54,003 nt of DNA from an uncultured Desulfobacterales bacterium (GTDB taxonomy: Bacteria > Desulfobacterota > DSM-4660 > Desulfatiglandales > HGW-15). Location of the stretch: assembly GCA_964454455.1 (NCBI GenBank), contig CAYVVQ010000004.1:1-54003 (forward strand), read 5' to 3'. Positions 12,019 to 37,677 of this stretch are shown here, piece by piece. The notes beneath the pieces are model-generated. The model did no database searches. It was not told where the DNA came from and worked only from the letters and a program-made list of their open reading frames with translations. The number at the start of each line of letters is the position of its first letter. The stretch's first letter is position 1. Position numbers and translations under genes: made by a program.

Positions 12019-12026
12019 ACGCCCCC

Positions 12027-22149: not shown

Positions 22150-22262
22150 GGTCCGGGCGTACCTCCTGCATGTGGATTCACGCCCTCGAAACGCCCCGGG
22201 CCTGCGGGGGAGGGCGGGCAAAGAATACCAGATCGGGACCCAAACTCAAAGGGGGTTCAGGT

Positions 22263-22294
22263 GTTGCAATTTGTTGCATCTAATGTTGCGCAAC
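22263..22294. promoter_or_regulatory. GTTGC-repeat cluster; candidate enhancer (UAS) or divergent-promoter element
   Basis: GTTGCA at 22263-22268, GTTGCA at 22273-22278, and the perfect palindrome GTTGCGCAAC at 22285-22294, in an AT-rich divergent intergenic region. Confidence 0.3.
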
Positions 22295-22460
22295 CTTGAA
22301 ACGGGAAAACATGTCAGTAAATACATATAGTTCATTTTGAAAATCAACGAAATGTTGAACCTGTCTGCAACGTCCACCCCATGGACGGATCGGAGGGTGG
22401 GAAAAGCCGGTCAGGGTCAACCCCTTGATTTTCAGCCCAGATTCTCTGTCCCGGGATCCA

Positions 22461-22476
22461 TGGCACGCTTTCTGCT
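22461..22476 (+). promoter_or_regulatory. Sigma-54 (-24/-12) promoter of the hdr-type locus
   Basis: TGGCACG-CTTT-CTGCT versus consensus TGGCACG-N4-TTGCW, with correct GG-N10-GC spacing. It lies ~200 bp upstream of the first gene; a repeat element occupies the leader. Confidence 0.7.
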
Positions 22477-22507: not shown

Positions 22508-22611
22508 TGATGGAGTCGCAAGAAGCCCCCTATCTTGAGATCTGCCCTGGAGATATCCATAGGTTATGGCGTTTCCAGCGGCGGGTGAGCGGTTTTTTGC
22601 GAACCCGTCAA
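22508..22611 (+). repeat. MITE-like element, copy B (in the 5' leader of the hdr locus)
   Basis: TGATGGAGTCGCAAGAAGCC...TTGAGATCTGCCC...GGTTATGGCGTTTCCAGCGGCGGGTGAGCGGTTTTTTGCGAACCCGTCAA. Confidence 0.85.
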
Positions 22612-22672
22612 ACGCGCGTTTCGGTGGGCAACCCCGGGAGGGGGCCCATGGCCGAACCGGAGAACGAGGACC

Positions 22673-23110
22673 ATGCGCCCTTCCGCCCCTGGAAAGAAGG
22701 TCCTGGTGGTCGACGACGAGCCGGATGAGAGGATTTTCCTCTGCAGGCTCCTGGAGCTGGGCGGCTATGAGTCGATGCTGGCCTCCGACGCCACCGAAGG
22801 GCTCGACATGGCGGTGCGGGAGCGGCCGGACTTGATTTTGCTGGCCGTCATGTTCGACCACCACGGCAATCTCCTGTTGTTCGACGATCTCAAGCTGGAT
22901 ACCACCCTCAAGCAGATCCCCGTGGTCCTTCTCTCCTCCATCGACAAGAAGACCCTGTTTCAGCTCAGGGCCCTCCCCGGTGCACCCAGAGGGGGCTTTC
23001 TCCTGAGACCCGAGGGCTTCCTGGGCAAGCCACCGGAAGCGGACGAGCTCCTGGGTCTTCTGAATACGCTGACCCAATCCAGGCCCCCGGATTTCCCGGC
23101 CGGCCCTTGA
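22673..23110 (+). CDS. Receiver-like (CheY-fold) protein lacking the phospho-acceptor Asp
   Basis: KKVLVVDDEPDE...DLILLAVMF...VVLLSS...FLGKP. The DD pair, Ser/Thr and Lys-Pro are kept, but the acceptor position is Ala (codon 22844-22846). Confidence 0.75.
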   Translation: MRPSAPGKKVLVVDDEPDERIFLCRLLELGGYESMLASDATEGLDMAVRERPDLILLAVMFDHHGNLLLFDDLKLDTTLKQIPVVLLSSIDKKTLFQLRALPGAPRGGFLLRPEGFLGKPPEADELLGLLNTLTQSRPPDFPAGP

Positions 23111-23120
23111 GGCGGAAGCC

Positions 23121-26100
23121 ATGGAGACGAGAATCGGGTTTTACATCTGCCACTGCGGCATCAACATCGCCGGCAAGGTGGACGTGGAGGCCGTGGCGGC
23201 CTACATTCGAACCCTTCCCGGCGTGACGGTCTCCCGGGACTACAAGTTCATGTGCTCGGACCCCGGCCAGGAGATGATCGTCGACGACATCCGAGAGCAC
23301 GGACTGAACCGGGTGGTGGTGGCTTCCTGCTCTCCCCGGCTTCACGGCAAGACCTTCATGGGCGCCTGCCAGCGCGCCGGCCTCAATCCGTACTACTTCC
23401 AGATGGCCTCGGTCCGGGAGCAGGTCTCCTGGGTGACCGAGGATCCGGAGCGCGCCACGGACAAGGCCAAGAGCCTGGCCCGGGCGGCGGTGAACCGGGT
23501 CCGGCTCCACGAAAGCCTCTTCGCGCGTCACGCCCGGGTCCACCCCGACGTGATGGTCGTGGGGGGCGGCATCGCGGGGATCCAGGCCGCCCTGGACATC
23601 GGGTCGGCGGGAAGAAAGGTGTACCTCGTGGAGCGGGATCCGACCATCGGCGGGCACATGCTCCAGTTCGACAAGACTTTTCCCACGCTCGACTGCGCCG
23701 CCTGCATCGGCACCCCCAAGATGGTGGAGGTCGCGCAGAACCCCCACGTGGAGCTCCTCTCCTACAGCGAGGTCAAGGAGGTCAACGGCTACATCGGCAA
23801 CTACACGGTCACGGTCCGGAAAAAGCCCCGCTACGTCGTCGAAGGGGTGTGCACGGGTTGCGGCGAGTGCGCCAAGGTCTGTCCGGTGACCGTCCCCAGC
23901 GAGTGGGACGAGGGGCTCGCGGAGCGGGCGGCCGTGTACCGTTCGTTCCCCCAGGCCGTCCCCATCACCTACGTCATCGACAAGCGGGATCGCGCGCCCT
24001 GCAACACGGCCTGTCCGGCCGGCATCAACGTGCAGGGCTACGTGCAGCTGGTCAGGCAGGGGAAGCACGACGAGGCCGTGCGCCTGATCCGGGAACGCCT
24101 GCCGCTTCCGGGCGTCCTGGGAAGGGTCTGCCCGGCCTTCTGCGAGGATCGGTGCCGGCGGGCGGAGCTGGACGCATCCGTGGCCATCCGACAGCTCAAA
24201 CGCGTCGCCGCGGATCTGGCCGGCCCCGCGGCTTGGGGAGCGCCGCCGATCGAGGAACGGGAGGAGCGGGTGGCCGTCATCGGATCCGGGCCGGCCGGGC
24301 TCAGCGCGGCCTATTTCCTCCGATTGGACGGCTTCCAGGTGACCCTGTTCGAGGCCCTGGAGAAGCTGGGCGGCATGCTCCGTGCGGGCATTCCGGACTT
24401 TCGCCTGCCGCCGGAGATCCTGGACCGGGAGATCGGGCAGATCCTGGCGCTGGGGGTGGAGGTGCGAACCGGTGCGGTCTTGGGCAGGGACTTCCGGCTG
24501 GACTCCCTGAAGGAGCAGGGGTTCGGAGCCGTCTTCCTGGGGATCGGAGCCCACAAGGACCTGTCCCTCGGCGTGGAGGGGGAGGAGAGCGACGGCGTGC
24601 TCCGGGCCGTGGAGTTCCTGCGGCGGGCCAACCTCGGGGAGAGGGTGGACGTGGGCCGGCGGGTGGCCGTGGTGGGGGGCGGCAACGTGGCCGTGGACGC
24701 GGCGCGTGTCGCTCGGCGGCTGGGCGCGGAGGAGGTCTCCATCGTGTACCGCCGGTCCGAGGCGGAGATGCCCGCCTATCCCGAGGAGATCCAGGGGGCC
24801 GGGGAGGAGGGAATCCGGATCGCCTACCTGAAGGCCCCGGTGCGGGTGGTGCTGGAGAGCGGCCGCGCCTCGGGGCTGGAGTGCATCGACACCCGGCTCG
24901 GACCGCCCGACAAGGGTGGTCGGAGCCGGCCCGAGCCGGTGGAAGGATCCGAGCACGTGCTCCCCGTGGACACGGTCATCACGGCCATCGGACAGCGGGT
25001 GGACGATACCTGGTCCCGTGAGGCGGGGCTTTCGTGGAGCCGGCAGGGGACCGTCGAGGCGCATCCCCGCACCTTGCAGACTTCCCTCCCCCACGTGTTC
25101 GCGGCCGGGGACGCGGTGAGCGGACCGGCCAGCGTGGTGGAGGCCGTGGGGGCGGGCCGGAGGGCCGCCCGGGGCATCCGCCGCTTTCTCGACGGAGAGG
25201 ACCTGGCGCACGAGCCCGTGGAGGCCGAGAAGACCGCCTGGGGCAAGGACTGGAACCCGGTCCCCGATGACCTGGAACGGCTGGGGCGGGCCGAAGCGTC
25301 CCATCGCGACGCGCAGGATCGGGTTCGGGGCTTCGCGGAGGTGGAGGACGCCCTCGACGGAGAGCAGGCGCAGGCCGAGGCGGCGCGCTGCCTCAACTGT
25401 GGGGTCTGCTCCGAGTGCATGGAGTGCGTAAAGGTGTGCGAGGCGCACGCCATCGATCACGGCATGCAGGCCGAGGAGGTCGAGCTTCAGGTGGGCAGCA
25501 TCATCCTGGCGACGGGCTACGATCTCCTGGACCCCACGCCCATGAAACCCTTCGGGTACGGGAAGTATCCCAACGTCTTCACCAGTCTCGAGTTCGAGCG
25601 CATGAACAACGCCACCGGACCCACCGGCGGGCGGATCCTCATGCGGGACGAGGACGGCGGGTTTTCGAGCCCGCCGGAAAGCGTGGCCATCGTCCACTGC
25701 GTGGGAAGCCGGGACGACCGCTATCACAGCTACTGCTCGCGCGTCTGCTGCATGTACGCCCTCAAGTACGGGCACCTGGTGCACGACAAGGTGGGGCCCG
25801 GGACCGCGATCTATGACTTCTACATCGACATGCGCTGCTTCGGAAAGGGGTACGAGGAGTTCTATCGCCGGTGCCAGGAGGAGGGCATCCAGTTCATCCG
25901 GGGCAAGCCCGCCGAGATCCTGGAGGAGGGCGGGAAGCTGGTCCTGGTCGGGGAGGATACCCTGATCGGACGCCGCTACCGCGTGCCCGTGGACATGGTG
26001 GTGCTCTGCGCCGCGATGCAGGCGAGATCCGATGCGGGTGAGATGGGCCGGATCTTCGGGATCAGCCAGGGACAGGACGGGTTCTACCTGGAGGAGCATC

Positions 26101-26504
26101 CCAAGCTGGCGCCTCTTTCCACGGCCTCGGACGGGATCTTCCTGGCCGGGACCTGCCAGGCGCCCCGGGACGTGCCGGACACCGTGGCCCAGGCCTCGGG
26201 TGCGGCCGCCAAGTCCCTGGCCCTGGCCTCCCTGGGGGAGGTCGAGATCGAGCCCACCACGAGCTGGATCGATCCGGATATCTGCGCCGGATGCCAGGTC
26301 TGCATCGATCTCTGCCCTTACGGGGCCATCGAGTTCGACCCCCAGCGGCATGTCTCCGTGGTCAACGAGGCCCTGTGCAAGGGCTGCGGGAGCTGCGCGG
26401 GGTTCTGCCCGAGCGGAGCGGCCCGATGCGCCTCCTTCAAGAGCCGGCAGCTGTTCGCGGAGCTGGACGGCATCTTCGACGCCATTCATCAGGTGGGGAG
26501 GTAA
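23121..26504 (+). CDS. hdrA: HdrA-like FAD/Fe-S flavoprotein with a nested NfnB/GltD-like NAD(P)H-binding module (1127 aa)
   Basis: HdrA N-domain (IGFYICHCGINIAG...VVVASCSPR), FAD motif (VMVVGGGIAGIQAALD), CVGSRD...YCSRVCC, and a C-terminal 2x[4Fe-4S] ferredoxin. Between the two Cys motifs of the inserted ferredoxin domain sits a GltD/NfnB-type unit (CNTACPAGINVQGY, VAVIGSGPAGLSAAYFL, VAVVGGGNVAVDAAR, FAAGDAV). Confidence 0.85.
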   Translation: METRIGFYICHCGINIAGKVDVEAVAAYIRTLPGVTVSRDYKFMCSDPGQEMIVDDIREHGLNRVVVASCSPRLHGKTFMGACQRAGLNPYYFQMASVREQVSWVTEDPERATDKAKSLARAAVNRVRLHESLFARHARVHPDVMVVGGGIAGIQAALDIGSAGRKVYLVERDPTIGGHMLQFDKTFPTLDCAACIGTPKMVEVAQNPHVELLSYSEVKEVNGYIGNYTVTVRKKPRYVVEGVCTGCGECAKVCPVTVPSEWDEGLAERAAVYRSFPQAVPITYVIDKRDRAPCNTACPAGINVQGYVQLVRQGKHDEAVRLIRERLPLPGVLGRVCPAFCEDRCRRAELDASVAIRQLKRVAADLAGPAAWGAPPIEEREERVAVIGSGPAGLSAAYFLRLDGFQVTLFEALEKLGGMLRAGIPDFRLPPEILDREIGQILALGVEVRTGAVLGRDFRLDSLKEQGFGAVFLGIGAHKDLSLGVEGEESDGVLRAVEFLRRANLGERVDVGRRVAVVGGGNVAVDAARVARRLGAEEVSIVYRRSEAEMPAYPEEIQGAGEEGIRIAYLKAPVRVVLESGRASGLECIDTRLGPPDKGGRSRPEPVEGSEHVLPVDTVITAIGQRVDDTWSREAGLSWSRQGTVEAHPRTLQTSLPHVFAAGDAVSGPASVVEAVGAGRRAARGIRRFLDGEDLAHEPVEAEKTAWGKDWNPVPDDLERLGRAEASHRDAQDRVRGFAEVEDALDGEQAQAEAARCLNCGVCSECMECVKVCEAHAIDHGMQAEEVELQVGSIILATGYDLLDPTPMKPFGYGKYPNVFTSLEFERMNNATGPTGGRILMRDEDGGFSSPPESVAIVHCVGSRDDRYHSYCSRVCCMYALKYGHLVHDKVGPGTAIYDFYIDMRCFGKGYEEFYRRCQEEGIQFIRGKPAEILEEGGKLVLVGEDTLIGRRYRVPVDMVVLCAAMQARSDAGEMGRIFGISQGQDGFYLEEHPKLAPLSTASDGIFLAGTCQAPRDVPDTVAQASGAAAKSLALASLGEVEIEPTTSWIDPDICAGCQVCIDLCPYGAIEFDPQRHVSVVNEALCKGCGSCAGFCPSGAARCASFKSRQLFAELDGIFDAIHQVGR
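23988..25220 (+). other. NfnB/GltD-like insertion within hdrA (domain coordinates, approximate)
   Basis: About aa 290-700 of the 23121..26504 ORF, bounded by CTGCGECAKVCP upstream and CLNCGVCSECMECVKVCE downstream. Confidence 0.65.
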
Positions 26505-26596
26505 TGCAGCCCTTAACCTTGAGATCTGCCCAGGGAATATCAATAGGTTATGGCGTTTCCAGCGGCGGGTGAGCAGGTTTTTGCGAATCCGTCAAA
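26505..26596 (+). repeat. MITE-like element, copy C (left end truncated), in the hdrA-mvhD spacer
   Basis: It starts right after the TAA at 26502-26504: ...CCTTGAGATCTGCCCAGGGAATATCAATAGGTTATGGCGTTTCCAGCGGCGGGTGAGCAGGTTTTTGCGAATCCGTCAA. The left terminal repeat is missing. Confidence 0.8.
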
Positions 26597-26616
26597 CACG
26601 AGGAACGGGGAGAGCC

Positions 26617-27045: not shown

Positions 27046-27059
27046 ACCGAGAGGTCAGC

Positions 27060-28199
27060 ATGTCCCAGGGATTCAAGATCGAGGTCAAGGAAGGCGATGC
27101 CGGAGGCGCACTGCGGGATTTTCTGGGAGCGATTCTCGAGCGGGAGGAGATCCGCGCCGTCCTGACGCCCTTGCGGCTGCCGTACAAGGCAAACGTGATG
27201 CCCACGCTGGTGGCCGACGGGGAGCGGCTCAGCGAGGCGGACCCTCTTTCCCCCGCCTACCCCCTGAGCGGGGCCCGGCTCCTGAGCCGACTGACCCGCG
27301 AGGAGGCGGGCGGCCGGATCGCCGCGGTTCTCCGCCCGTGCGAGATTCGGGCCTTCATAGAGCTCGTCAAGCTCAAGCAGGCCTCCCGTGAGGGCCTGGT
27401 TCTCATCGGTCTGGACTGTGCCGGGGCCTTCTCGAACGACGTGTTCGCCCGGGCCGCGGCCGAAGACGAATCGGGGGACCTGACCCGGCGTTTTCTTCGA
27501 GCCGCCTTTGCCGGGGAAGAGAACCCGGCGGGGTACGAGCTCGCCGGGGCATGCCGCGCCTGCGAGCACCCCACGCCGGACGGCGCCGATGTGGCGGTCG
27601 GGCTCCACGGCGGGGACCCGGAGCGGGAGATCCGGGTCGAGGCCCGGACCGACGCCGGAAAGGCCTTGCTGGCCGACCTGGGGCTTCCGGAGTCCGCGGA
27701 ACCGGAAGGTCGATCCAGGGCCGTGAAGGAGAGGGTCGAGAGGGCGGTCCAGCGGCGGGAGGAGATGTTCGACCGGACCCGGCAGGCCACCGACAGCGTG
27801 AAAAAGCTCACGTCCTACCTCGCCTCCTGCGTAAACTGCTTCAACTGCCGCGTGGCCTGCCCGGTCTGCTACTGCCGGGAGTGCGTCTTCGGGACGGACG
27901 TCTTTGAGCACGAACCCCGGCAGTACTTGAACTGGGCCGACCGGAAGGGGGCCGTGAAAATGCCTACGGACACGGTGTTCTACCATCTCACGCGCATGGC
28001 CCACATGGCGGCCTCCTGCGTGGGCTGCGGCCAGTGCTCGAACGCCTGCCCGAACGACATCCCGGTCATGGAGCTGTTTCGCACCGTGGCCCACCGGGTG
28101 CAGCAGGGCTTCGACTACGAGCCCGGCCGCAGTGTGGAGGAACCCCTTCCCCTTGCGGTGTTCCGCGAGAACGAGTTGGCCGAGGTGGTGGGACGATGA
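27060..28199 (+). CDS. Fe-S protein with 2x[4Fe-4S] motifs (AsrA/HydB/FlxB-C-like or FrhB-like electron-transfer subunit)
   Basis: ATG at 27060. RPCEIRAFIEL, then CVNCFNCRVACPVCYCRECVF and CVGCGQCSNACPNDIP. The exact family is not resolved by eye. Confidence 0.6.
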   Translation: MSQGFKIEVKEGDAGGALRDFLGAILEREEIRAVLTPLRLPYKANVMPTLVADGERLSEADPLSPAYPLSGARLLSRLTREEAGGRIAAVLRPCEIRAFIELVKLKQASREGLVLIGLDCAGAFSNDVFARAAAEDESGDLTRRFLRAAFAGEENPAGYELAGACRACEHPTPDGADVAVGLHGGDPEREIRVEARTDAGKALLADLGLPESAEPEGRSRAVKERVERAVQRREEMFDRTRQATDSVKKLTSYLASCVNCFNCRVACPVCYCRECVFGTDVFEHEPRQYLNWADRKGAVKMPTDTVFYHLTRMAHMAASCVGCGQCSNACPNDIPVMELFRTVAHRVQQGFDYEPGRSVEEPLPLAVFRENELAEVVGR

Positions 28200-31100
28200 G
28201 ACGAAAGATCGGCAAGGCGCTCGTGGTGGGCGCGGGGATCGCCGGCATTCGATCCGCCCTGGATCTGGCCGAAACCGGTTACGGCGTGACACTGATCGAC
28301 CGCGCGCCCCACATCGGCGGCATCCTGTCGCAGCTCGACCGCCAGTTCCCGACGGACGCCTGCGGCATGTGCCGGATGCTTCCCATGGTGGAGCGGGACG
28401 CCGGCGGCCAGTACTGCCTGCGCAAGGGCCTGTTTCACGAAAACATCGACCTGAGGCTGGGAACCGAGCTGAAGGGCCTGGAGGGGGAGCCCGGAAGGTT
28501 CGAGGCCGTGCTGAGCACGCGCAGGGCCCGAATCGATCCGGACCGATGCCAGGGCTGCGGCGCGTGCGCCGAGGCCTGCCCCGTGGAGCTGCCCGATCCT
28601 TTCAACGAGGGCCTATCCAGGAGGAAGGCCGTCTATCTTCCCGTGCCCCACGCGGTGCCGAACCCGTTCGTCATCGATGCGGAGGCCTGCACCCTCTGCG
28701 GCGCCTGCGAGCAGGTCTGCCCCACCAACGCGATCACCCTCGGGGATCCCGGCCGGAAGGAGTTCCGCGTCCTCGTCGTGGACGACGAGCGGATCGTCCG
28801 GGACTCTCTCAAGGACTGGCTCGAGGACGTGGGGTTCGGGGTGGACACGGCGGGCTCGGGTCAAGAGGCCCTGGACCGGCTGGAGCAGGATTCCTTCGAC
28901 CTCCTGCTGGTGGACATCAAGATGCCCGGCATGGACGGTGTGGAGGTCCTGCGCCGCGCGCTCGAGAGCCGTGCCGATCTCACCGTGATCATGATCACGG
29001 CTTACGCCACGGTGGACACCGCGGTGGAGGCCATGAAGATCGGCGCCCTGGACTACCTGACCAAGCCGTTCGACCCGGAAAAGCTGGTCCCCATGGTGGA
29101 AAGCGTGTACCAGGACCGCCGCGGCCCCGGCAGGGAAACCCTGGAGGTGGGGGCGGTGGTGCTCGCCTGCGGCATGTCCACCCTGGACCTGACCGAAGGG
29201 TTCGGCTGGACCGGCTACCGGGAGATGGCCGACGTGGTGACCGGCCTCGAGCTCGAAAGGATCCTGAGCGGCACCGGTCCCACTGGAGGGTGCCTGACAA
29301 GGCCCTCCGACGGAGGGCCCGTAAAGCGGATCGCCTGGCTCCAGTGCGTGGGATCCCGAGACCGCCAAGCCGATGCCGGTTTCTGCTCCTCCATCTGCTG
29401 CATGATCTCCCTCAAGGAGGCGCGCCTGGTCCAGAAGCGCACCGGCGGCGAGGTGGAGACCCACATCTTCTACATGGACCTTCGCACTCCGGGGAAACGA
29501 TTCCAGCGTTACGGTGAGGAGGCGGAAGCCGAGGGCGTGCAGCTGCATCGGGTACGCGTCCACTCGGTGGTGCCGGAGGAGAAGACCGGGCGCCCGAAGA
29601 TCCAGTACGTCTCGGAGGAGGGTGCCCTGCGGGAGGAGACCTTCGACCTGGTGGTGCTTGCGGTGGGAGCCCGGCCCCCGGTCGGCACGGCCGAGCTGGC
29701 AGGCATGCTCGAGCTGGATCGCAATCCGTGGGGGTTCGTAAAGCCCAAGGGGTTTCACCCGGCCTTGTCCAGCCGCGAGGGCGTGCTCCTGAGCGGCGCC
29801 TTTGCGTCCCCTTGCGACATCGCCGACTCGGTCCTGCTGGCCGGCGGGGCCGCCCTGGAGGCCTCCCGCATCCTTCACGCCGCGGGGGGAGGCCTGGCGC
29901 CGGAAGATTCGGAGGAGAGCCCCTACCGGGATGTTTCGCGGGAGCGGTCCAGGACCCTGATCGCACTCTGCCGATGCGCCAGGGAGACCGTTCCCGACCT
30001 CGACCTCGAAGGTTTGGCCCGCGACCTGGAGGCCGATCCCGGCGTCGAGCAAGTGGAGATCGTCGAGAACCTGTGCACGGCCGCCGGCTGGGACGCCCTG
30101 GTGGAATCGGCCCGGAAGATACGACCCAACCGCGTCCTCCTGGGGGCGTGCCTTCCCTATGTGTACAACCGAAGGCTCGGCGAGCTGGGCGGGCGGATCG
30201 GTCTGGCCCCGGCCTACATGGACGTGGTGGATCTCCGGACCCCCTTCTTCTCCGTAAGGGAGCCCGAGGCGGCACGCCGCCTGGCGGGCTCGGAGATCCG
30301 CATGGCGCTGGCCCGGATCCGGCGGCCCGGTCCGCCGGCCCGGGCGGCCCGGCCCGTGGAGCGCAGGGCCCTCGTGGTGGGGGCTGGAATCGCGGGTCTC
30401 TATGCGGCGCTGGCCATCGCCGACCACGGTTACCCCGTGGAGATCGTGGAGCGCGAAACCGCACCGGGCGGAAACCTGACCTGGCTGCCCCGCACGCTCG
30501 AAGGCCGGGAGCCGGCCGGGCTCCTCGAGGGCATCCTGGCCGACGTGGAGAAGCACCCTCGGATTCAACTCCACACCTCGACGGAGGTGGTGGACTCCTC
30601 CGGGCGCGCGGGGCGGTTCCGGACCGTCCTTCGGAACGCCGAGGGGGTTCGCCGGACCGTGGACCACGGCGTGACCATCCTGGCCACGGGAGGGCGGGAA
30701 GCGGAGCCCGAGGGGTTCGGCCGGGGGGAGGACGAGAAGGTCCTCACCCAGAGGGAGCTGGAGAAGGCCCTGGCCGGGGGAGACCTGGACCCGGCCGGAC
30801 TGGAGTCCGTGGTAATGATCCAGTGCGCGGGAACCCGGAGCGGTTCCCGGAACTACTGCAGCCGGGTCTGCTGCCCCGCGGCCGTCCGGCAGGCGCTTCT
30901 CCTCAAGGAGAGGAACCCGGAGGTTTCGGTCTGGATTCTTTACCGCGACATGATGACGCCCGGGTTCCTGGAGGCCGACTACGAACGGGCCAGGGAGGCC
31001 GGGGTGCACTTCATCCAGTACACGACCGAGAGGAGACCGGTGGTGGAGCCGGGGGAGAAAAAGGCGGCGGTCACGGCTCGGGAGCCGGTGCTCGGCCGGG

Positions 31101-31657
31101 ATGTTCGGATCCCGGCCGATCTCGTGGTCCTGGCGGGCGGCGTGACGCCCGACCTGCCTGCAGAGCTCGCGGGCGCCTTCGGTGCCGGACTGGACGAGGA
31201 CGGATTTTTCCAGGAGGCCGACGGAAAGTGGCGCCCGGTGGATGCCATGCGCGAGGGGGTGTTCGCCTGCGGCCTGGCCGGTTCCCCCCGGACCGTGGCC
31301 GAGTCCCTGGCGTCGGCCGGGGCCGCCGCGGAGCGGGCCCTCCGAATTCTCACGAGGGAAGCCGTTCCCGTAGACCTCCGGGTGGCCCGCATTCGCCACG
31401 CTCTCTGCTCGCGCTGCGAGCAGTGCCTGGACGCCTGCCCTTACGGGGCTCGGTACGTGGACCCCGAAAAGGGCCTCGTGGTCGTGGACGAGACGGCGTG
31501 CCAGGGCTGCGGCAGCTGTGCGGCCGTCTGTCCGAACAGCGCCACCGTTCTCGAGGGGCTGGACGACCCCCGTATGCTCGAGTCCATCGACGCGGCCCTG
31601 GAGACGGGGTGGAGGGAACCGAGGCTTTCGGAGGAACGGCTGGACAGCGGACGCTGA
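28196..31657 (+). CDS. hdrA: Tandem HdrA-like flavoprotein (two HdrA modules) with an embedded CheY-type receiver domain (1153 aa)
   Basis: ATG at 28196 overlaps the upstream stop (ATGA). Module 1: VVGAGIAGIRSALDLAETG, CQGCGACAEACP, CTLCGACEQVCP, REC insert, CVGSRD...CSSICC. Module 2: degenerate HdrA N-domain (LCRCARE...LLGACLP), VVGAGIAGLYAALAIADHG, QCAGTR...YCSRVCC, and C-terminal CSRCEQCLDACP/CQGCGSCAAVCP. Confidence 0.85.
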   Translation: MRRKIGKALVVGAGIAGIRSALDLAETGYGVTLIDRAPHIGGILSQLDRQFPTDACGMCRMLPMVERDAGGQYCLRKGLFHENIDLRLGTELKGLEGEPGRFEAVLSTRRARIDPDRCQGCGACAEACPVELPDPFNEGLSRRKAVYLPVPHAVPNPFVIDAEACTLCGACEQVCPTNAITLGDPGRKEFRVLVVDDERIVRDSLKDWLEDVGFGVDTAGSGQEALDRLEQDSFDLLLVDIKMPGMDGVEVLRRALESRADLTVIMITAYATVDTAVEAMKIGALDYLTKPFDPEKLVPMVESVYQDRRGPGRETLEVGAVVLACGMSTLDLTEGFGWTGYREMADVVTGLELERILSGTGPTGGCLTRPSDGGPVKRIAWLQCVGSRDRQADAGFCSSICCMISLKEARLVQKRTGGEVETHIFYMDLRTPGKRFQRYGEEAEAEGVQLHRVRVHSVVPEEKTGRPKIQYVSEEGALREETFDLVVLAVGARPPVGTAELAGMLELDRNPWGFVKPKGFHPALSSREGVLLSGAFASPCDIADSVLLAGGAALEASRILHAAGGGLAPEDSEESPYRDVSRERSRTLIALCRCARETVPDLDLEGLARDLEADPGVEQVEIVENLCTAAGWDALVESARKIRPNRVLLGACLPYVYNRRLGELGGRIGLAPAYMDVVDLRTPFFSVREPEAARRLAGSEIRMALARIRRPGPPARAARPVERRALVVGAGIAGLYAALAIADHGYPVEIVERETAPGGNLTWLPRTLEGREPAGLLEGILADVEKHPRIQLHTSTEVVDSSGRAGRFRTVLRNAEGVRRTVDHGVTILATGGREAEPEGFGRGEDEKVLTQRELEKALAGGDLDPAGLESVVMIQCAGTRSGSRNYCSRVCCPAAVRQALLLKERNPEVSVWILYRDMMTPGFLEADYERAREAGVHFIQYTTERRPVVEPGEKKAAVTAREPVLGRDVRIPADLVVLAGGVTPDLPAELAGAFGAGLDEDGFFQEADGKWRPVDAMREGVFACGLAGSPRTVAESLASAGAAAERALRILTREAVPVDLRVARIRHALCSRCEQCLDACPYGARYVDPEKGLVVVDETACQGCGSCAAVCPNSATVLEGLDDPRMLESIDAALETGWREPRLSEERLDSGR
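28760..29113 (+). other. Receiver (REC) domain embedded in the tandem HdrA (domain coordinates)
   Basis: EFRVLVVDDERIVRDSL...FDLLLVDIKMPGMDGVEVL...LTVIMITAYATVDTAVEAMKIGALDYLTKPFDPEKL. The acceptor Asp codon is at 28913-28915. Confidence 0.85.
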
Positions 31658-31677: not shown

Positions 31678-32256
31678 ATGAAGGAGATCCAGAGGAAGGA
31701 CCCACCCGCTTCGAGCGATGCGGAGCAGGCGGACATCCTGGCCGCGGTGAGGAAACTGATTCAGCCCTGCATCCAGTGCGGGACGTGCACGGGCTCGTGT
31801 CCCAACGCGTTCGCCATGGACCTCACGCCCCGCGTGCTTTGGCGGCTGGTGCTGCGGGGGGAGGTGGACGAGATCTTCCACAGCCGGACCTTCACCCTGT
31901 GCTCCTCCTGCTACGCCTGCACGTTGCGGTGTCCGCGTCAGCTCCAGGTGACCGAAGCCATGGCCGGGCTCAAGCAGGAGGCCGCGAGGCGCCGGCCCGA
32001 GCTGCATCGCCCCAGCACGGCGTTCAGCAGGACCTTCATGGACAGCGTCCGCCGGCACGGCCGGGTCAACGAGATGGAGTTCATGTTTTTCTACTTCGCC
32101 GCCCGGAAGAACCCGCTCCTTCCCTTTCGATTCTCCCCCATGGGCATGAGGCTGATGCGAAGGGGCAAGGTGAAGATGTCCCTGCCCGGCTCGGGCGGAA
32201 ACGACGTTCTGGATTCCCTGTTTCGAACCGTGGAGCGACTGGAGAGCACCCCATGA
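31678..32256 (+). CDS. hdrC: HdrC-like 2x[4Fe-4S] subunit
   Basis: CIQCGTCTGSCP and CSSCYACTLRCP motifs. 192 aa, GAGGAGG RBS, overlaps hdrB (ATGA). Confidence 0.8.
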   Translation: MKEIQRKDPPASSDAEQADILAAVRKLIQPCIQCGTCTGSCPNAFAMDLTPRVLWRLVLRGEVDEIFHSRTFTLCSSCYACTLRCPRQLQVTEAMAGLKQEAARRRPELHRPSTAFSRTFMDSVRRHGRVNEMEFMFFYFAARKNPLLPFRFSPMGMRLMRRGKVKMSLPGSGGNDVLDSLFRTVERLESTP

Positions 32257-33119
32257 GGTACTTCTACTACCCGGGATGCTCCCTGGAGGGAACCGCCAGG
32301 GAGTACGACCTGAGCACCCGTGCGTTTCTCCGCGCGGCCGGGGTGGACCTGGTGGATCTGCCCGACTGGACCTGCTGCGGGGCCACCGCGGCCCAGGGGA
32401 TGAGCCGGCTGCTCGCGCTGGCGCTCCCGGCCCGGAATCTGGCCCTGGCCGAGAGGACCGGCGAGAACCTGGACATCCTGGTCCCCTGCAGCGCCTGCTA
32501 CCTGAACCTGAGAAGGGCCGAGGAGAGGATCCGCTCGGGCGGGGAGGCGAAGCGCGAGATCAACGCGGCCCTGTCCGAGACCGGGCTCCAGTGCAGCGGG
32601 GAGGTCCGCGTGCGCCACCTCCTCGACGTCCTCTCCCGGGACCTGGATGCGGCATCGCTGGCCGAGCGCGTGACGCGTCCCCTCGAGGGGATGCGCATCG
32701 CCCCCTACTACGGCTGCCAGTGCCTGCGGCCGTATGCGGATTTCGACGACCCGGAGGAGCCCCGAACCATGGAACCGCTCATCCGGGCCGCCGGGGCTGA
32801 GGTGTTCCCCTGGACCGCCGGGGCCCGCTGCTGCGGGGCTTCCCACATGACCACCAAGCCGGAGATCGGGATCGAGCTCGTGGCGGGTCTCCTCGACGCG
32901 GCGCGGGGGGCGGATGCGATCGTGACCGTGTGCCCCATGTGCCAGATGAACCTCGAGGCCTATCAGCGCAAGGCCTCGCGCGCCCGGGGGGCCGACCTGA
33001 GTGCGACCGTTCTCTATCTTCCCCAGCTCCTCGGCCTGGCGCTGGGCCTTTCGAGAGACGAGGTCCGCCTCGATCTCAACCTCGCCGTCGGAGAAGCGTT
33101 CAAGAAGACGGCCGCCTGA
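32253..33119 (+). CDS. hdrB: HdrB-like subunit with two CCG domains
   Basis: ATG at 32253. YYPGCSL...DWTCCGA...VPCSACY and YYGCQC...ARCCGAS...VCPMCQ. Confidence 0.85.
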   Translation: MRYFYYPGCSLEGTAREYDLSTRAFLRAAGVDLVDLPDWTCCGATAAQGMSRLLALALPARNLALAERTGENLDILVPCSACYLNLRRAEERIRSGGEAKREINAALSETGLQCSGEVRVRHLLDVLSRDLDAASLAERVTRPLEGMRIAPYYGCQCLRPYADFDDPEEPRTMEPLIRAAGAEVFPWTAGARCCGASHMTTKPEIGIELVAGLLDAARGADAIVTVCPMCQMNLEAYQRKASRARGADLSATVLYLPQLLGLALGLSRDEVRLDLNLAVGEAFKKTAA

Positions 33120-33144: not shown

Positions 33145-35448
33145 GTGTTCTCCTGGATCAAGAGCCTTCGGCAGAGGCTGGTGACCAAGCTGATCCTGAC
33201 CGTGGGGTTGACCCTGCTGGTCAGCATCTCGGCGTGGTCGTACGCCATCATCCGATACCAGGAGGACCAGACCATGAAGAACCTCTCCCTGGAGGCGGAC
33301 CGGCTGAGCACCACCATCAAGCTGGGGACCCACTACGCCATGATGCTGAACTCCAGGGAGGACATCGCCGAGACCATCAAGAACATCAGCCGACAGCCGG
33401 AGATCAAGGCGATCCGGATCTACAACAAGTCGGGCCAGATCACTTACTCGGACGATCCGGAAGAGATCGGCCGGATCACGAACATCAAGGACGAGGCCTG
33501 CTACGTGTGCCATCGCAGCGACCCGCCGCTGGTCAAGCTGGACCTGTCCGAAAGGACCAGGATCTACAGGGACGAGAACGACACCCGCCTCCTCGGCATC
33601 CTGAGCGCCATCTACAACGAGCCCGGGTGCTCCACGGAGTGCCACGTCCACCCCGAGGGGAAGGAGGTGCTGGGGGCTCTGGACGTGGTGCTCACACTGG
33701 CCCCCGCGGAGAAGAAGATCACCGCCTACAAGCAGTGGGCTACGGCCATGACCGTGCTTGTCCTTCTGGTTACGGCCGTGGCGGTGCTCCTGTTCATCAT
33801 GCACTTCGTCAATCTTCCCGTGAGCCGCATGATTGCGGCCACCCGGCGGATCGCGAGGGGGGAGAGCGATGTGGGCGTGGAGCTCCGCCAGGAGGACGAG
33901 ATGGGGCAGCTGGCGGATGCCATCACCTACATGGGAGGTGAGATCGAGCGGAAACAGGCGGCCCTGACCAAGCAGCGCAAGGAGTATCAGCGGTTGTTCG
34001 AGCTCGTCCCCTGCATCATCACGGTGCAGGACAGAAACTACAGGCTCATCAACTACAACCGGGAGTTCGCCGAGAAGTTCGCCCCGACCCCCATGGACAC
34101 CTGCTACCACGCCTACAAGGGCCGAACGACCAAGTGCGAGCCTTGCCCCGTGGAGAGGACCTTCGAGGACGGCGAGGTGCACCAGAGCGAGGAGTCCGGA
34201 CGGAATTGGGACGGCACCATGAGCCACTGGATCGTGATCGCTTCCCCGGTCTGGAACGAGAAGGGCGAGATCCAGTCGGCCATGGAGATCAGTCTGGACA
34301 TCACGGAACGGAGGCTTCTGGAGCAGGAGCTGATAAAGTCCGAGCAGAAGTATCACGCCATCTTCAACAACATTCCCAACGCCGTCTTCGTCCTGGATCC
34401 GGACACCCTGGACGTCCTGGACTGCAACGACAGCGTGACCCATGTGTACGGCTACGAGAAAGGCGAGATCCTGAACCGGTCATTCCTGGAGCTTCACGAG
34501 GGGGAGGAGCATGAGCAGTTCGAAAGGATGCTCGGGGCTTACAATGTCCTCAACCGGGTGAGGCACAAGCACAAGGCGGGACGGAGGATCTACGTGAACA
34601 TCCGCGTCTCCCCCTCCGAGTACAACGGTCAGAATGTGCTCCTGGTCACCACGAGCGACATCACCAAGAGGCTGGAGACCGAGGAGCAGCTGGCCCAGGC
34701 GAGCAAGCTGGCCACCCTGGGAGAGATGGCCACGGGCGTGGCCCACGAGCTCAACCAGCCGCTTTCCGTGATCAAGACCGTATCGAGCTTCTTCATGAAA
34801 AAGCTCCATGCAGGACAGGAAATACCGGCCGAGACCCTCTACCCGATGCTCGGCAAGGTGGACACCAACGTGGACCGGGCCACCAAGATCATCACCCACA
34901 TGCGCCTTTTCGCCCGCAAGTCCGAGGTGCAGCTGGTCCGTGTGCGTGTCGAGGAGGTGCTGGATCGGGCCTTCGACATTTTCACCCAGCAGCTCAGGGC
35001 ACGGGGGATCGAGGTGGTCCGGGAGTTCAGTGGGAGACTTCCCCCCATCATGGCGGATCCGGACCGTCTCGAGCAGGTCTTCATCAATCTCCTGATCAAC
35101 GCGCGGGACGCCATTGAAGAGCGGTGGGAGGGCGCCGAGTGCGAGCCCGGGGACAAGCGGATCACCGTGAGGACGAGGGCCGAGGCCGACGCCGTGGTCG
35201 TGGAGATTCAGGACACGGGATCGGGGATCGATGAGGCCCACAAGGAAAAGATATTCGACCCTTTCTTTACCACCAAGGAGGTGGGCAAAGGGACCGGGCT
35301 GGGGCTGTCCATCAGCTACGGGATCGTCAAGGACTGCGAGGGAGAGATCTGCGTGGTCCAGACCGAGGGTCCGGGCGCGTGCTTCACCGTCCGGTTCCCC
35401 GTGAAGGATGAGGAGAATGAATCAACAGACCGTCCTCCTGGTGGATGA
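33145..35448 (+). CDS. Sensor histidine kinase (TM - extracytoplasmic CXXCH domain - TM - HAMP - PAS - PAS - HisKA - HATPase)
   Basis: GTG at 33145 with GGAAAGGA upstream. TM helices at about aa 14-36 and 200-222, CYVCH and CSTECH between them, H-box [17 protein letters not shown]-box [11 protein letters not shown]. Confidence 0.85.
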
Positions 35449-36997
35449 CGAGGAAGACATCCGCCTCGTGCTGGGAATCGCCCTCGCCGACATGGGATAC
35501 AACGTCATCTCGGCCGAAAACGGCAAGGAGGGGCTTCGCCTGTTTCGCGAGAAGCACCCGCCCATCGTGATCACCGACATCAAGATGCCCGACATCGACG
35601 GGGTGGACCTGCTCAGGATGATCAAGGGGGAGGATCCCGACACGGAGGTCGTCATGATCACCGGGCACGGGGACATGGACGTGGCCATTCAGAGCTTTCA
35701 GCAGGAGGCCACGGACTTCATCACCAAGCCCATCAACGTGGAGAACCTGGAGAGCTCGCTTCACCGGGTGCAGGAGCGGATCCTCGCCCGGGAGAAGCTG
35801 CGGGAGTACACCCACTCGCTGGAGAGCATGGTTCACCGGAAGTCGGAGGAGCTGGCCAGCCTGGAAAAGGCCCACCAGGGAGGGGACGGTGGGTTTCCGG
35901 CGGGGGACGTCGTCCGGCGTTTCCAACGGCTCTTCGACGACCTTCCCTGCCACGTGGTGGTGATGGACGAGGAGCTGGCGCTCACCACCGTCAATCGAAA
36001 GTTCCGCCGGGACTTCGGTGACCGCGAGGGAGAGTTGTGCTATGATGTGCTGAAAAACGCAACATCCCCTTGCACGGACTGCGTGGTTCAGGCGACCTTC
36101 ACCACGGGAGAGAGCCAGGAGGGAGAGGAGGAGATCACCACGCCGGACGGGGTGGCGCACCAGGTCCTGGTGTGGACGTCGCCGGTGCGCACGGCCGGGG
36201 ATGCCCCGACCCACGTGCTCACGCTCTACACCGACATGGCCCAGCTCCAGAAGGTCCAGGACCACCTGAGCTCGCTGGGGCTCATGGTGGGATCCATCTC
36301 CCACAGCATCAAGGGGATGCTCACAGGCCTGGACGGGGGCATGTACATGCTCGATTCGGGTCTGCGGAAGCAAGACGACGCCCAGGTCCACGAAGGTCTT
36401 TCCGTGGTCAAGGAGATGGTGGGGCGAATCCGGAACATGGTGCTGGACGTCCTGCTCTTCTCCAAGGAGCGGGACCTCAAGAAGGAAGAGTCGGAGGTGG
36501 TAGCGTTCGCTGCGGAGGCGGCCAAGGGGATTCGTCCCCTGGTGGAGGAGCATGGCATTGCCTTCAGCCTGGAGTGCCCCGAGGATGCGGGCGTGTTCGA
36601 GGTGGACGCGGGGCTTCTCCGCACGGCTTTCGTGAACGTGCTCGAGAACGCGGTGGACGCGTGTCTCGAGGACAAGGGGAAGGAGGACCACCGGGTTGCG
36701 TTTCGTGTTCGCGGGGAGGAGGACGAAGTCGTCTTCGAGGTGGAGGACGACGGCGTGGGCATGGACGAAGAGACCCGAAAGAAGGTGGCCACCCTGTTCT
36801 TCTCTTCGAAGGACCGCAAGGGAACCGGTCTGGGGCTCTACATCACGGAGCGGACCGTGAGGCAGCACGGCGGCGACATCGCCGTGGACTCCGAACCGGG
36901 CCGGGGGACGGTGTTCACCATTCGGATTCCACGGAAGGCCGATACGGGCAGTCAGGTCTCTCCCGGCGCCGTCGGCGGTCGGGGGGAGGAACCCTGA
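35408..36997 (+). CDS. Hybrid sensor kinase (REC-PAS-DHp-HATPase)
   Basis: [12 protein letters not shown]...IVITDIKMPDIDG...FITKP, then a PAS-like domain with a Cys triad, SLGLMVGSISHSIKG (H-box-like) and GTGLGLYI. It overlaps the upstream kinase gene by 41 nt; ATG at 35417 is an alternative start. Confidence 0.8.
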   Translation: MRRMNQQTVLLVDDEEDIRLVLGIALADMGYNVISAENGKEGLRLFREKHPPIVITDIKMPDIDGVDLLRMIKGEDPDTEVVMITGHGDMDVAIQSFQQEATDFITKPINVENLESSLHRVQERILAREKLREYTHSLESMVHRKSEELASLEKAHQGGDGGFPAGDVVRRFQRLFDDLPCHVVVMDEELALTTVNRKFRRDFGDREGELCYDVLKNATSPCTDCVVQATFTTGESQEGEEEITTPDGVAHQVLVWTSPVRTAGDAPTHVLTLYTDMAQLQKVQDHLSSLGLMVGSISHSIKGMLTGLDGGMYMLDSGLRKQDDAQVHEGLSVVKEMVGRIRNMVLDVLLFSKERDLKKEESEVVAFAAEAAKGIRPLVEEHGIAFSLECPEDAGVFEVDAGLLRTAFVNVLENAVDACLEDKGKEDHRVAFRVRGEEDEVVFEVEDDGVGMDEETRKKVATLFFSSKDRKGTGLGLYITERTVRQHGGDIAVDSEPGRGTVFTIRIPRKADTGSQVSPGAVGGRGEEP

Positions 36998-37021: not shown

Positions 37022-37378
37022 ATGGCCAAGAGGATCCTGGTCGTCGATGACGAGCAGGCGGTCGTGCGGTACATGACCACCCTGTTCGAGGATCACGGCT
37101 ACGAGGTGATCGCGGCGACGGACGGGGCGGAGGCCCTCAAGGTCCTGGACGATAACGTGCCGGATCTCATCACGTTGGACCTCCAGATGGACAAGGTCTG
37201 GGGACCGCAGTTCTACCGCAAGATGAGCAAGAACCCGGCCCTCGAGGATGTCCCCGTCATTGTCGTGAGCGGTCTCGCCCGGCCCGAGCTGGCCATCAAG
37301 AAGGCTGCGGCCGTGGTCGGGAAACCCTTCGACCCGGACGAGCTCGTCCGGATCGTTCGAGAACAGATCGGCGAGTAA
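37022..37378 (+). CDS. Single-domain CheY-like response regulator
   Basis: 118 aa: RILVVDDEQ...DLITLDLQMD...VIVVSG...VGKPF. AGGAGG RBS. Confidence 0.9.
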   Translation: MAKRILVVDDEQAVVRYMTTLFEDHGYEVIAATDGAEALKVLDDNVPDLITLDLQMDKVWGPQFYRKMSKNPALEDVPVIVVSGLARPELAIKKAAAVVGKPFDPDELVRIVREQIGE

Positions 37379-37547: not shown

Positions 37548-37651
37548 TTGACGGGTTCGCAAAAACCCGCTCACCCGCCGCTGGACACGCTATAACCTCT
37601 TGAAATCCCAAGGGCAGATCTCGAGGCTTCGGGCTTTTTGCGACGCCATCA
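37548..37651 (-). repeat. MITE-like element, copy D
   Basis: TTGACGGGTTCGCAAAAACCCGCTCACCCGCCGCTGGACACGCTATAACC...CAGATCTCGAGGCTTCGGGCTTTTTGCGACGCCATCA. Confidence 0.85.
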
Positions 37652-37677
37652 GGTATTCCTTCTCGGCGCGAATCTTT

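Follow-up and report, generated by a model that had tools for sequence, protein, structure and literature searches.

The locus described here raises the question whether a flavoprotein of the HdrA type may be switched by phosphorylation of a domain built into its own chain. The window, i.e. the whole stretch of 54,003 nucleotides (nt) analysed, comes from an uncultured Desulfobacterales bacterium (assembly GCA_964454455.1, contig CAYVVQ010000004.1, positions 1 to 54,003 of the forward strand), and the gene in question, at 28196–31657, codes for a fused (tandem) HdrA-like protein with a CheY-like receiver (REC) domain inside the first of its two modules. The receiver has all the residues expected of a working phosphorylation switch and is conserved in a large family of such proteins from bacteria of the sulfate-reducer type, and phosphorylation-dependent control of the HdrA enzyme is considered moderately probable on these grounds. 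The parts of the gene are as follows; FAD stands for flavin adenine dinucleotide, FeS for iron–sulfur and aa for amino acids.

28196–31657, plus strand: focal gene, fused (tandem) HdrA-like flavoprotein with internal receiver, 1153 aa (open reading frame, Pfam, NCBIfam, PDB, AlphaFold2, Foldseek).
28196–28519, plus strand: module A FAD domain, first part, thioredoxin-reductase-like, aa 1–108, with GxGxxG at aa 12–17 and C56/C59 (alignment to 8rvu and 5odc HdrA).
28520–28738, plus strand: module A inserted ferredoxin domain, aa 109–181, with two CxxCxxCxxxCP motifs (Pfam Fer4/Fer4_7 at 117–181; 8rvu alignment up to 317).
28760–29113, plus strand: receiver (REC, CheY-like), aa 189–306, following the ferredoxin domain, before the FAD domain continues (Pfam PF00072).
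28781–28786, plus strand: acidic pair D196-D197 (CheY D12/D13; alignment to E. coli CheY, invariant in 45 homologues).
28913–28915, plus strand: predicted phospho-acceptor D240 (CheY D57; same alignment, invariant in 45).
28997–28999, plus strand: switch threonine T268 (CheY T87; same alignment, invariant in 45).
29054–29065, plus strand: switch tyrosine Y287 (CheY Y106) to lysine K290 (CheY K109), YLTK (same alignment).
29126–29905, plus strand: module A FAD domain, second part, aa 311–570, with CVGSRD...CSSICC at aa 384–402 (aligns to HdrA chain 322–508).
29942–30334, plus strand: module B HdrA N-terminal-type FeS domain, aa 583–713, with C592, C594, C627 and C652 (weak but collinear alignment to HdrA residues 10–142).
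30341–31360, plus strand: module B FAD domain, aa 716–1055 (Pfam Pyr_redox_2; query 725–1051 aligns to sHdrA 6tjr residues 4–339).
31361–31615, plus strand: module B C-terminal ferredoxin domain, aa 1056–1140 (Pfam Fer4_10/Fer4_21 at 1064–1114; query 929–1136 aligns to the HdrA C-terminus).

The receiver was matched by Pfam Response_reg at aa 192–301, over model positions 1–110 of 111 (E=4.6e-32, 110.9 bits against a cut-off of 30.2), and contains DLLLVDIKMPGMDG. Alignment to E. coli CheY placed D196, D197, D240, T268 and K290 on the catalytic residues D12, D13, D57, T87 and K109, and in the 45-member alignment of homologues, which reaches down to 52% identity and underlies all statements of invariance given here, D196, D197, D240, T268, Y287, L288, K290, P291 (CheY P110) and F292 are all invariant. 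The secondary structure of the AlphaFold2 model showed five strands and five helices over residues 191–309 (from a strand at 191–195 to a helix at 294–309), the (beta-alpha)5 fold of receivers, with predicted local distance difference test (pLDDT) values for this block mostly of 78–89. After the HdrA models, the next NCBIfam matches were to the receivers of FixJ, AtoC and NtrC, and the best receiver matches in the PDB were FixJ 5xso (E 7e-24), NtrC1 1zy2 and DctD 1qkk. By these alignments the domain is a genuine NtrC/FixJ-like receiver, predicted to be phosphorylatable.

The site of the insertion is well defined. In the alignment to 8rvu, query residues 6–181 correspond to HdrA 152–317 and query residues 311–498 to HdrA 322–508, by which the receiver is a clean insertion of about 128 aa that replaces about 4 residues of methanogen HdrA, immediately C-terminal to the second of the cluster motifs in the inserted-ferredoxin domain. 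We take this point to be the boundary, as reported for 5ODC, where the inserted-ferredoxin domain returns to the thioredoxin-reductase-like domain. The connections are short: in the AlphaFold2 model about 8 residues lead from the ferredoxin domain to the receiver and about 3 from its alpha5 to the next beta-strand of the FAD domain.

The protein that surrounds the receiver is of the HdrA class. Pfam located FAD/NAD Rossmann matches (Pyr_redox_2) at residues about 8 and about 725, four Fer4 motifs and the Response_reg domain; the best NCBIfam matches were HdrA2/HdrA models with 482–630 bits (630, 488 and 482), and a PDB sequence search matched HdrA with E values down to 1.5e-97. The AlphaFold2 model, calculated from the 45-sequence alignment, had a pLDDT of 80.9 and a predicted template modelling (TM) score of 0.81, and in a Foldseek search with this model HdrA chains ranked first, with TM scores up to 0.91 on the HdrA core. 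Superposition on solved HdrA complexes, which were deposited in alternative states, gave root mean square deviations of 5.3 Å (8rvy) and 8.6 Å (8rvu); these different fits agree with mobile domains in the HdrA class, and domain motion as a point of control is plausible from the model. The start at 28196 is held to be right, and not an upstream GTG at 28034, because homologues start at the same methionine (consensus MxRKIGKALVVGAG) and the ATG overlaps the stop of the upstream gene (ATGA, 28196–28199).

The two modules are not equivalent. Module A carries the FAD-binding sequence VVGAGIAGIRSALDLAETG at aa 10–28, and its C59 is the equivalent of Cys197 of methanogen HdrA, since query residue 7 aligns to residue 145 of 5odc and C59 thus to 197; G12, G14, G17, C56 and C59 are invariant, as are all eight cysteines of the ferredoxin motifs CQGCGACAEACP (aa 118–129) and CTLCGACEQVCP (aa 165–176) and the cluster ligands C384, C397, C401 and C402. 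Module B begins with the N-terminal-type FeS domain, whose C592, C594, C627 and C652 are invariant, and its FAD domain, with GxGxxG at 729–734 and C877, C888, C892 and C893 likewise invariant, lacks both the inserted ferredoxin domain and an equivalent of Cys197. An FAD domain with GxGxxG and the CxGSRD...CSxxCC ligands is therefore invariant in both modules. The four-domain layout of HdrA is not contained within either module; its domains are split in the order FAD domain with Cys197, inserted ferredoxin and REC, then N-terminal FeS, FAD and C-terminal ferredoxin domains, and the two halves sum to one complete HdrA set. With the Cys197 equivalent in module A only and the N-terminal-type FeS domain in module B only, the protein has the organisation of the fused, self-heterodimeric HdrA (PMC9012536). 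It is not an HdrL, as neither Fer4_20 nor a second nucleotide-binding insert was detected by Pfam.

A sequence-only reading of the window had proposed an open reading frame of 1153 aa with the motifs VLVVDDERIV, VIMITAY and LTKPF, in which a receiver with its acceptor codon at 28913–28915 follows two ferredoxin motifs in the first of two HdrA modules and HdrA resumes afterwards. Translation recovered every motif quoted, the PF00072 match is full length and far beyond chance, and the acceptor Asp is kept in the CheY alignment, its codon having been given exactly (D240, aligned to CheY D57). The placement of the receiver within the first module is fully supported by Pfam, PDB alignment and AlphaFold2, and the second HdrA-like module was found at aa about 583–1140 by Pfam, NCBIfam and PDB alignments. 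Whether other HdrA homologues share the insertion, the further point of that reading, is answered by a conserved family of at least 120 clusters (clusters at 90% identity).

All of the 120 closest clusters (120/120; 52–88% identity to the query, about 1129–1163 aa) carry PF00072 together with HdrA domains. They come from NCBI, JGI, ENA and Logan assemblies and include the complete 8.0-Mb chromosome of Desulfonema magnum and a 4.8-Mb contig, and full-length members occur in at least 12 species-representative genomes, a lower bound from a scan of one genome per species in which one of the two search patterns lay in REC, so that generic response regulators swamped part of the result. The lineages among the matches listed are Syntrophobacterales, Desulfosarcinaceae, Desulfococcaceae, Desulfobacteraceae and unclassified Thermodesulfobacteriota. 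A chimeric assembly, or a frameshift joining a response-regulator gene to fragments of hdrA, was rejected because the same architecture and insertion point recur throughout these independent assemblies and in complete genomes; it is refuted for practical purposes and its probability is negligible. In the window itself the reading frame, the codon bias (GC content at third codon positions, GC3, 0.85) and the HdrA alignment are continuous on both sides of the receiver.

Public databases name these proteins 'response regulator', 'FAD-dependent oxidoreductase' or 'heterodisulfide reductase subunit A', and the D. magnum product is called 'Two component system response regulator domain-containing protein, FAD/NAD(P)-binding...'. 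Such names would favour a conventional response regulator with a transcriptional or other classical output; the name 'response regulator' arises from automatic domain-based naming, however, and the receiver is internal (aa 189–306 of 1153), with no DNA-binding, AAA+, GGDEF/EAL or other classical output in a chain whose remaining residues, about 1030, make up HdrA-type FAD and FeS domains, which makes this explanation very improbable. As far as could be found, the combination of REC and HdrA has been registered by annotators and apparently never analysed.

Within the family only one segment is more conserved than the receiver, whose mean pairwise identity is 0.71; the two FAD domains reach 0.59 and 0.58, the region between the modules 0.44. 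Column identity reaches 0.86 in alpha1, 0.98 in the beta3-alpha3 loop, 0.94 in alpha4 and 0.92 in beta5. These are the kinase-docking and output faces of a receiver, and the alignment shows that the receiver, its catalytic set intact, is constrained more than the FAD domains.

The history of the insert was followed in an exhaustive HMMER search of 50%-identity representatives, of which the best 150 were considered. Fused double HdrA is common: most of these representatives have about 950–1050 aa and align in two stretches, query residue about 315 joining target residue about 190, which means that no insert is present. Most versions of this bacterial protein lack REC (about 1000–1030 aa), and a receiver hidden Markov model built here detected it in 15 of the 150, none of them outside the closest matches. 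Other representatives, of about 1320–1350 or about 1475–1530 aa, have a Fer4_20/NAD(P)H-type (NfnB/GltD-like) module at the site of REC according to Pfam. This module, complete or partial, was seen at the same site in P0160, P0169, P0176 and P0179 (about 1500 aa), in P0163, P0188 and P0230 (about 1275–1345 aa) and in loci L020, L021, L038 and L044; the NfnB-type tandem HdrA often adjoin pairs of a classical kinase and a REC-sigma54 activator, and the receivers of these activators are the closest non-HdrA relatives of the insert.

A tree calculated by neighbour-joining only, from the 994 columns that are shared once the receiver is left out, brought the REC-bearing representatives together. Within their core group it placed the REC-less P0124 (1021 aa), with 89% bootstrap, and a clade of the REC forms with P0124 and P0132 has 62% support; strict monophyly of the REC-bearing proteins was not recovered (0/100), P0124 being nested within them. 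The junction of P0124 is a clean excision, …AISISGEGPVEQEI/LLETGTVIL…, and the protein sits in the same HdrL-MvhD-FrhB-like-HdrA-HdrC operon. P0123 (aa about 189–302), also in the same operon, and L017 (10541–10930) have an insert of the same size in which Pfam no longer detects a receiver: the acidic pair is AA/PD, Thr is replaced by Ile/Gly and Lys by Thr/His, and the Asp at the acceptor position is kept. The simplest history, as read from the neighbour-joining trees, would be that the insert was gained once, cleanly lost at least once and in one case decayed to a pseudo-receiver.

In the genomes the nearest non-HdrA relatives of the insert are the REC domains of REC-sigma54 activators (47–55% identity). 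A closer relative was noticed in L009, a metagenome-assembled genome (MAG) of Deltaproteobacteria, where a 444-aa open reading frame about 0.6 kb downstream of hdrB encodes a USP-REC-USP protein (receiver at about 15649–16002, minus strand); with its flanks, this receiver shares 69% identity with the HdrA insert (RRDFRILVVDDE…VYQDFE). The insert sequence has evidently moved between proteins, judging from this match. A REC-less orthologue at L032 (about 10400–12886), in a nanopore-derived MAG, is frameshifted after about 330 codons of an open reading frame spanning the ferredoxin-FAD junction, which is probably an assembly indel rather than the mark of a pseudogene.

The variants bear on a second explanation, by which the receiver is a structural module, a constitutive dimerisation or docking fold that joins two complexes or binds the HdrL/MvhD/FrhB-like module, phosphorylation being no longer used. 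The best argument for it is that P0123 and L017 keep a domain of the same size after loss of the acidic pair, Thr and Lys, so that the fold is of use even without the chemistry of phosphorylation; the REC form of D. magnum has no kinase nearby, and the small receiver encoded at 22673–23110 of the window has lost its acceptor Asp, so that Asp-independent receivers do occur in the system. The best argument against it is the invariance, in 45 sequences, of the five catalytic positions and the aromatic switch, with the near-identity of the Mg/phosphate loop, beta3-alpha3; moreover, pseudo-receivers such as that of P0123 lose catalytic residues quickly. A purely structural role is thus regarded as improbable.

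Candidate phosphate donors of the receiver are encoded at 16691–18571, 33145–35448 and 35408–36997; these and the other neighbouring genes are listed here in the order of their positions.

16691–18571, plus strand: REC-PAS-HisKA-HATPase hybrid kinase upstream of the operon; these are the bounds of the open reading frame, the true start probably lying near 17030 (translation; orthologues syntenic in L002, L003, L005 and L006).
18584–20530, plus strand: PAS-containing sigma-54 activator with AAA+ and helix-turn-helix (HTH) domains and no receiver (translation; L002/L003 orthologues with PAS, Sigma54_activat and HTH_8).
22461–22476, plus strand: sigma-54-type -24/-12 element (TGGCAC-N5-CTGCT; TGGCACGCTTTCTGCT), about 200 nt upstream of the first operon gene (one-mismatch match, intergenic).
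22673–23110, plus strand: small single-domain receiver, first gene of the operon (Pfam Response_reg E=3e-8).
23121–26504, plus strand: HdrL-type protein, 1127 aa, HdrA including the N-terminal domain, with the inserted-ferredoxin domain split by an NfnB/GltD-like NAD(P)H/FAD module (Pfam Fer4_20 and Pyr_redox_2 at 291–679; type described in PMC2702500 and PMC9012536).
26623–27045, plus strand: MvhD (FlpD) electron-transfer subunit (Pfam PF02662 E=8e-52).
27057–28199, plus strand: FrhB/FdhB-like FeS flavoprotein subunit (Pfam FrhB_FdhB_C, Fer4_8).
31678–32256, plus strand: HdrC-like subunit (Pfam Fer4_8/9/17; syntenic in homologous loci).
32262–33119, plus strand: HdrB-like subunit with two CCG domains (Pfam PF02754 E=1e-22, two stretches).
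33145–35448, plus strand: membrane sensor histidine kinase with a transmembrane helix, an outside domain of about 130 aa, a second transmembrane helix, HAMP, PAS, PAS, HisKA and HATPase (Pfam, transmembrane scan).
35408–36997, plus strand: REC-PAS-HATPase hybrid kinase, its first 41 nt shared with the end of the kinase gene before it (Pfam, synteny).
37022–37378, plus strand: single-domain receiver, 118 aa (Pfam E=6e-23; orthologue free-standing in REC-less L090/L091).

The focal protein is encoded, as expected of an HdrA, together with HdrB (with its CCG domains), HdrC and MvhD, and this association is kept in related loci, where the 12-gene arrangement of the window is conserved with 54–63% protein identity. 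One operon thus encodes two unlike HdrA proteins, and what is inserted in or at the inserted-ferredoxin domain differs between them. The first gene of the operon departs from its relatives: its receiver has Ala at the phospho-acceptor position (DLILLAVMF), where six orthologues have Asp (…LDVMM…), which by this comparison is a lineage-specific loss of phosphorylatability.

Pfam domains confirmed that the two genes proposed as kinases downstream of hdrB (33145–35448 and 35408–36997) are real. The outside domain of the first contains the sequences CYVCH (33499–33513) and CSTECH (33628–33645), the CxxCH motif being invariant and the Cx3-4CH motif conserved in 11 kinase orthologues. CxxCH and Cx3-4CH spacings are known from cytochrome c3. 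The outside domain had no good Pfam match, with only sub-threshold similarity to CHASE8 (E=0.011), and its motifs suggest a periplasmic c-type haem redox sensor. The first PAS domain of this kinase (window 34102–34146) has a C-x11-12-C-x2-C motif that is conserved among orthologues, and Cys-rich PAS motifs, e.g. CRQVFRGAPCATCC, occur in three regulators, namely this HAMP-PAS kinase, the REC-PAS kinase at 35408–36997 and the sigma-54 activator at 18584–20530; they may represent a metal or FeS redox-sensing site. The signalling genes are directly followed by one for a protein with cyclic-nucleotide-binding and PilZ domains (37638–38507); it is not conserved in the syntenic loci examined and gives a hint of a connection to second messengers.

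An orthologue of the HAMP-PAS kinase adjoins REC-HdrA in 14 of 18 loci with intact REC, often directly after hdrB or hdrA, and some orthologous kinase is present in 16 of the 18. The pseudo-REC locus L017 has no HAMP-PAS kinase within 10 kb downstream; the contexts of P0124 and P0123 are too short downstream for kinases to be scored. The idea that the kinases track the receiver, suggested by the kinase-less L017 (pseudo-REC) and L032 (REC-less), was rejected, the same kinases being found at the REC-less loci L089 and L090/L091. Of the co-occurrence with kinases considered in the sequence-only reading, the frequency near REC-HdrA therefore stands, whereas a specific link to the receiver does not: since the kinases accompany REC-less operons too, the linkage predates the insertion and is not by itself a sign that they phosphorylate HdrA. 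By this comparison of loci, the insertion has plugged the enzyme into a pre-existing signalling module of the operon family, and the co-encoded kinases are the obvious candidates for phosphate donors of the HdrA receiver. A free 129-aa receiver in the REC-less L090/L091 was considered as a separate-gene (Rosetta-stone) counterpart of the insert and was rejected: it is the orthologue of the 118-aa receiver (41–44% identity) and only 26–30% identical to the HdrA insert, which therefore is not its fused copy.

From 16.7 to 37.4 kb the cluster holds an unusual number of signalling domains, five receivers (REC) and three kinases, and the signal may also be read as running in the reverse direction. 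The receiver would then serve as a phosphate sink or a sensor input, and the redox or conformational state of HdrA would tune the flow of phosphate to other receivers and hence the expression of the operon. As the HAMP-PAS kinase, REC-kinase, single REC and PAS-sigma54 activator also occur with REC-less operons, they have outputs other than HdrA, and with neither an HPt domain nor a DNA-binding response regulator in the cluster, branch competition among receivers is plausible. On the other hand, insertion at a hinge by two very short linkers reads more naturally as coupling to the mechanics of the enzyme, and a mere sink needs no conserved alpha4-beta5 output face; signalling of this reverse or side-branch kind is accordingly held to be unlikely.

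Control of the enzyme by its receiver could proceed as follows. The focal HdrA with HdrB, HdrC, MvhD, the FrhB-like protein and the NfnB-containing HdrL would form a cytoplasmic bifurcation-type complex that links NAD(P)H, ferredoxin and a disulfide acceptor. In HdrA, low-potential electrons reach ferredoxin via the inserted ferredoxin domain, through the cluster held by the N-terminal domain and Cys197 (PMC9012536), and module A holds the only inserted-ferredoxin arm of the focal protein. The receiver sits, on its two short linkers, at the hinge where this arm rejoins the FAD domain. In receivers the two chain ends emerge side by side on the face away from the phosphorylation site, which leaves the active site of an inserted receiver exposed, and phosphorylation travels via the Thr/Tyr switch to the alpha4-beta5-alpha5 face, which controls dimerisation in receivers of the NtrC1/DctD type. 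A co-encoded histidine kinase, the nearest candidates being the haem-motif HAMP-PAS kinase and the REC-kinase directly downstream, would phosphorylate D240, flip the T268/Y287 switch and remodel this face. The remodelled face could then alter the packing of the receiver against the ferredoxin arm, or the pairing of two receivers between complexes, with the outcome that the low-potential (ferredoxin) branch is opened or closed or that complex assembly is changed. This would place a fast post-translational layer on top of the sigma-54-dependent transcription of the operon.

Direct phospho-gating is consistent with the invariant catalytic residues, the conserved alpha1 and alpha4-beta5 faces and the co-encoded kinases. 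Its more detailed versions carry less weight than control as such. It is tempting to speculate, and we do so tentatively, that the haem-c sensor kinase responds to the redox state outside the cell or in the periplasm and that phosphorylation of D240 opens or closes the low-potential branch within seconds, which would be the first recognised case of a two-component switch wired into a bifurcating enzyme; that phosphorylation gates specifically the ferredoxin branch is by itself somewhat doubtful.

Several observations weigh against phosphorylation-dependent control of a bifurcating enzyme. The NCBIfam scores remain below the equivalog cut-offs (1100, 1400 and 1300 bits) for the methanogen coenzyme B–coenzyme M HdrA/HdrA2, so that by these scores the focal protein shows homology but not orthology to the CoM-S-S-CoB enzyme, and electron bifurcation by the complex is ascribed to it from homology. 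The clean excision in P0124 and the decay in P0123 and L017 indicate that the receiver is dispensable for the enzyme core. No kinase was found within 10 kb of the REC form of D. magnum, and the linkage to kinases is not specific to REC: the REC-less P0132 (L089) has the kinase pair directly upstream, and in the REC-less P0127 (L090/L091) hdrB is followed by the free 129-aa receiver, the HAMP-PAS kinase and the PAS-sigma54 activator. Finally, high conservation of alpha4-beta5 is in part a general hallmark of NtrC-type receivers and is no proof of a specific contact with HdrA.

Transcription of the operon may depend on sigma-54. Elements comparable to that at 22461–22476 were found at the equivalent place in L002 (4457) and L012 (2359), and this evidence is positional only, the window-wide count of -24/-12 matches being not above chance. 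Three TGTTGCA/TGTTGCG repeats at 22262–22295, about 170–200 nt further upstream, are possible activator sites. An intergenic element of about 80–93 nt occurs in six copies with 82–93% identity and in both orientations, at 22524–22616, 26508–26600, 8580–8669 (minus), 37548–37635 (minus), 49022–49111 and 53886–53969, which include the operon leader and the hdrL-mvhD spacer. A role as an operon-specific regulatory RNA was rejected, as the element is dispersed in the window, is absent from related loci and gave neither an Rfam match nor a significant fold. It looks like a genome-specific dispersed repeat of the type of repetitive extragenic palindromic sequences (REP) or miniature inverted-repeat transposable elements (MITE).

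The energy economy of anaerobes at the edge of what thermodynamics allows, methanogens, sulfate reducers and syntrophs among them, is set by HdrA-type bifurcating complexes, whose regulation after synthesis is, to our knowledge, essentially undescribed. If the control proposed here holds, anaerobes of the Desulfobacterales type could switch between bifurcation, confurcation and idling without new protein synthesis, the outputs of response regulators would extend from signalling enzymes and transcription to core redox catalysis, and a putative periplasmic haem sensor would be linked to cytoplasmic electron routing in abundant marine sediment bacteria. A canonical switch on the enzyme itself would also offer a tractable handle on the gating of the ferredoxin arm and on the domain motions of bifurcation, and the natural set of variants, with REC intact, REC decayed, REC excised or an NfnB module at the same site, constitutes a ready comparative experiment.

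The scaffold of the protein has precedents. Chadwick et al. (2022) described fused HdrA proteins that serve as their own heterodimeric partner, namely HdrA3/HdrA4 of anaerobic methanotrophic archaea (ANME) and the HdrA of the MetFV-HdrABC-MvhD complex of Moorella thermoacetica (PMC9012536). Like these, the focal protein has two modules per chain, one with the N-terminal FeS domain and without Cys197 and the other the reverse, and its gene likewise adjoins genes of MvhD, HdrBC and FrhB/FdhB-like proteins. It differs from ANME HdrA3/HdrA4 in the reversed order of the modules, the one bearing Cys197 coming first, and from the fused HdrA of that work in its receiver, which is unmentioned there.

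The site of the insertion has a precedent too. Insertion of a 500-aa NfnB module into the HdrA ferredoxin domain has been described for ANME-1 HdrA9-11 (PMC9012536), and together with HdrL1-3 of D. autotrophicum (PMC2702500) these proteins share with the focal one a foreign module in or at the inserted-ferredoxin domain. The HdrL insertion is, however, a redox module of about 470–500 aa (Fer4_20 and NAD(P)H/FAD) that lies between the two cluster motifs and adds a substrate site, whereas the insertion found here is a signalling domain of 128 aa that follows the second motif and adds no cofactor. In locus VIII of D. autotrophicum HRM2 (Strittmatter et al. 2009, PMC2702500) the genes hdrL-mvhD-fdhB-hdrA4-hdrCB are accompanied by genes of the response regulator, histidine kinase and CheY-like types. 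The window has the same gene order and the same kind of signalling neighbours, the two being likened by gene order, and a receiver inside HdrA4 is not mentioned in PMC2702500.

The receiver itself resembles those of NtrC1, DctD, AtoC and FixJ, with which it shares the alpha4-beta5 motif TAVEAMKxGAxDYLxKPF. Unlike in these proteins, no AAA+ or HTH output follows, and alpha5 runs into a strand of the FAD domain. Response regulators with enzymatic outputs are well known from CheB, PleD/WspR, RpfG and the RssB type, in which the receiver directly controls an attached catalytic or adaptor domain. Their receiver stands at the N-terminus and serves a signalling or turnover enzyme; that of the present protein is internal to a multi-cluster energy-metabolism flavoprotein of a multi-subunit complex.

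No description of a receiver inside HdrA was found in the searchable full-text literature, which for the most part does not include subscription journals. Of the novelty supposed in the sequence-only reading, the REC insertion as such thus remains undescribed in that literature, whereas the tandem scaffold and the insertion hot-spot have been published (PMC9012536, PMC2702500) and the architecture is common in databases. For these last reasons REC-HdrA is less singular than had been held, yet as a lead for control of a bifurcation-type enzyme after its synthesis it has good support. Its ingredients, i.e. receivers that control attached enzymes, fused HdrA and insertions at this site, are each known singly; their combination, apparently undescribed so far, is widespread in bacteria of the Desulfobacterales type.

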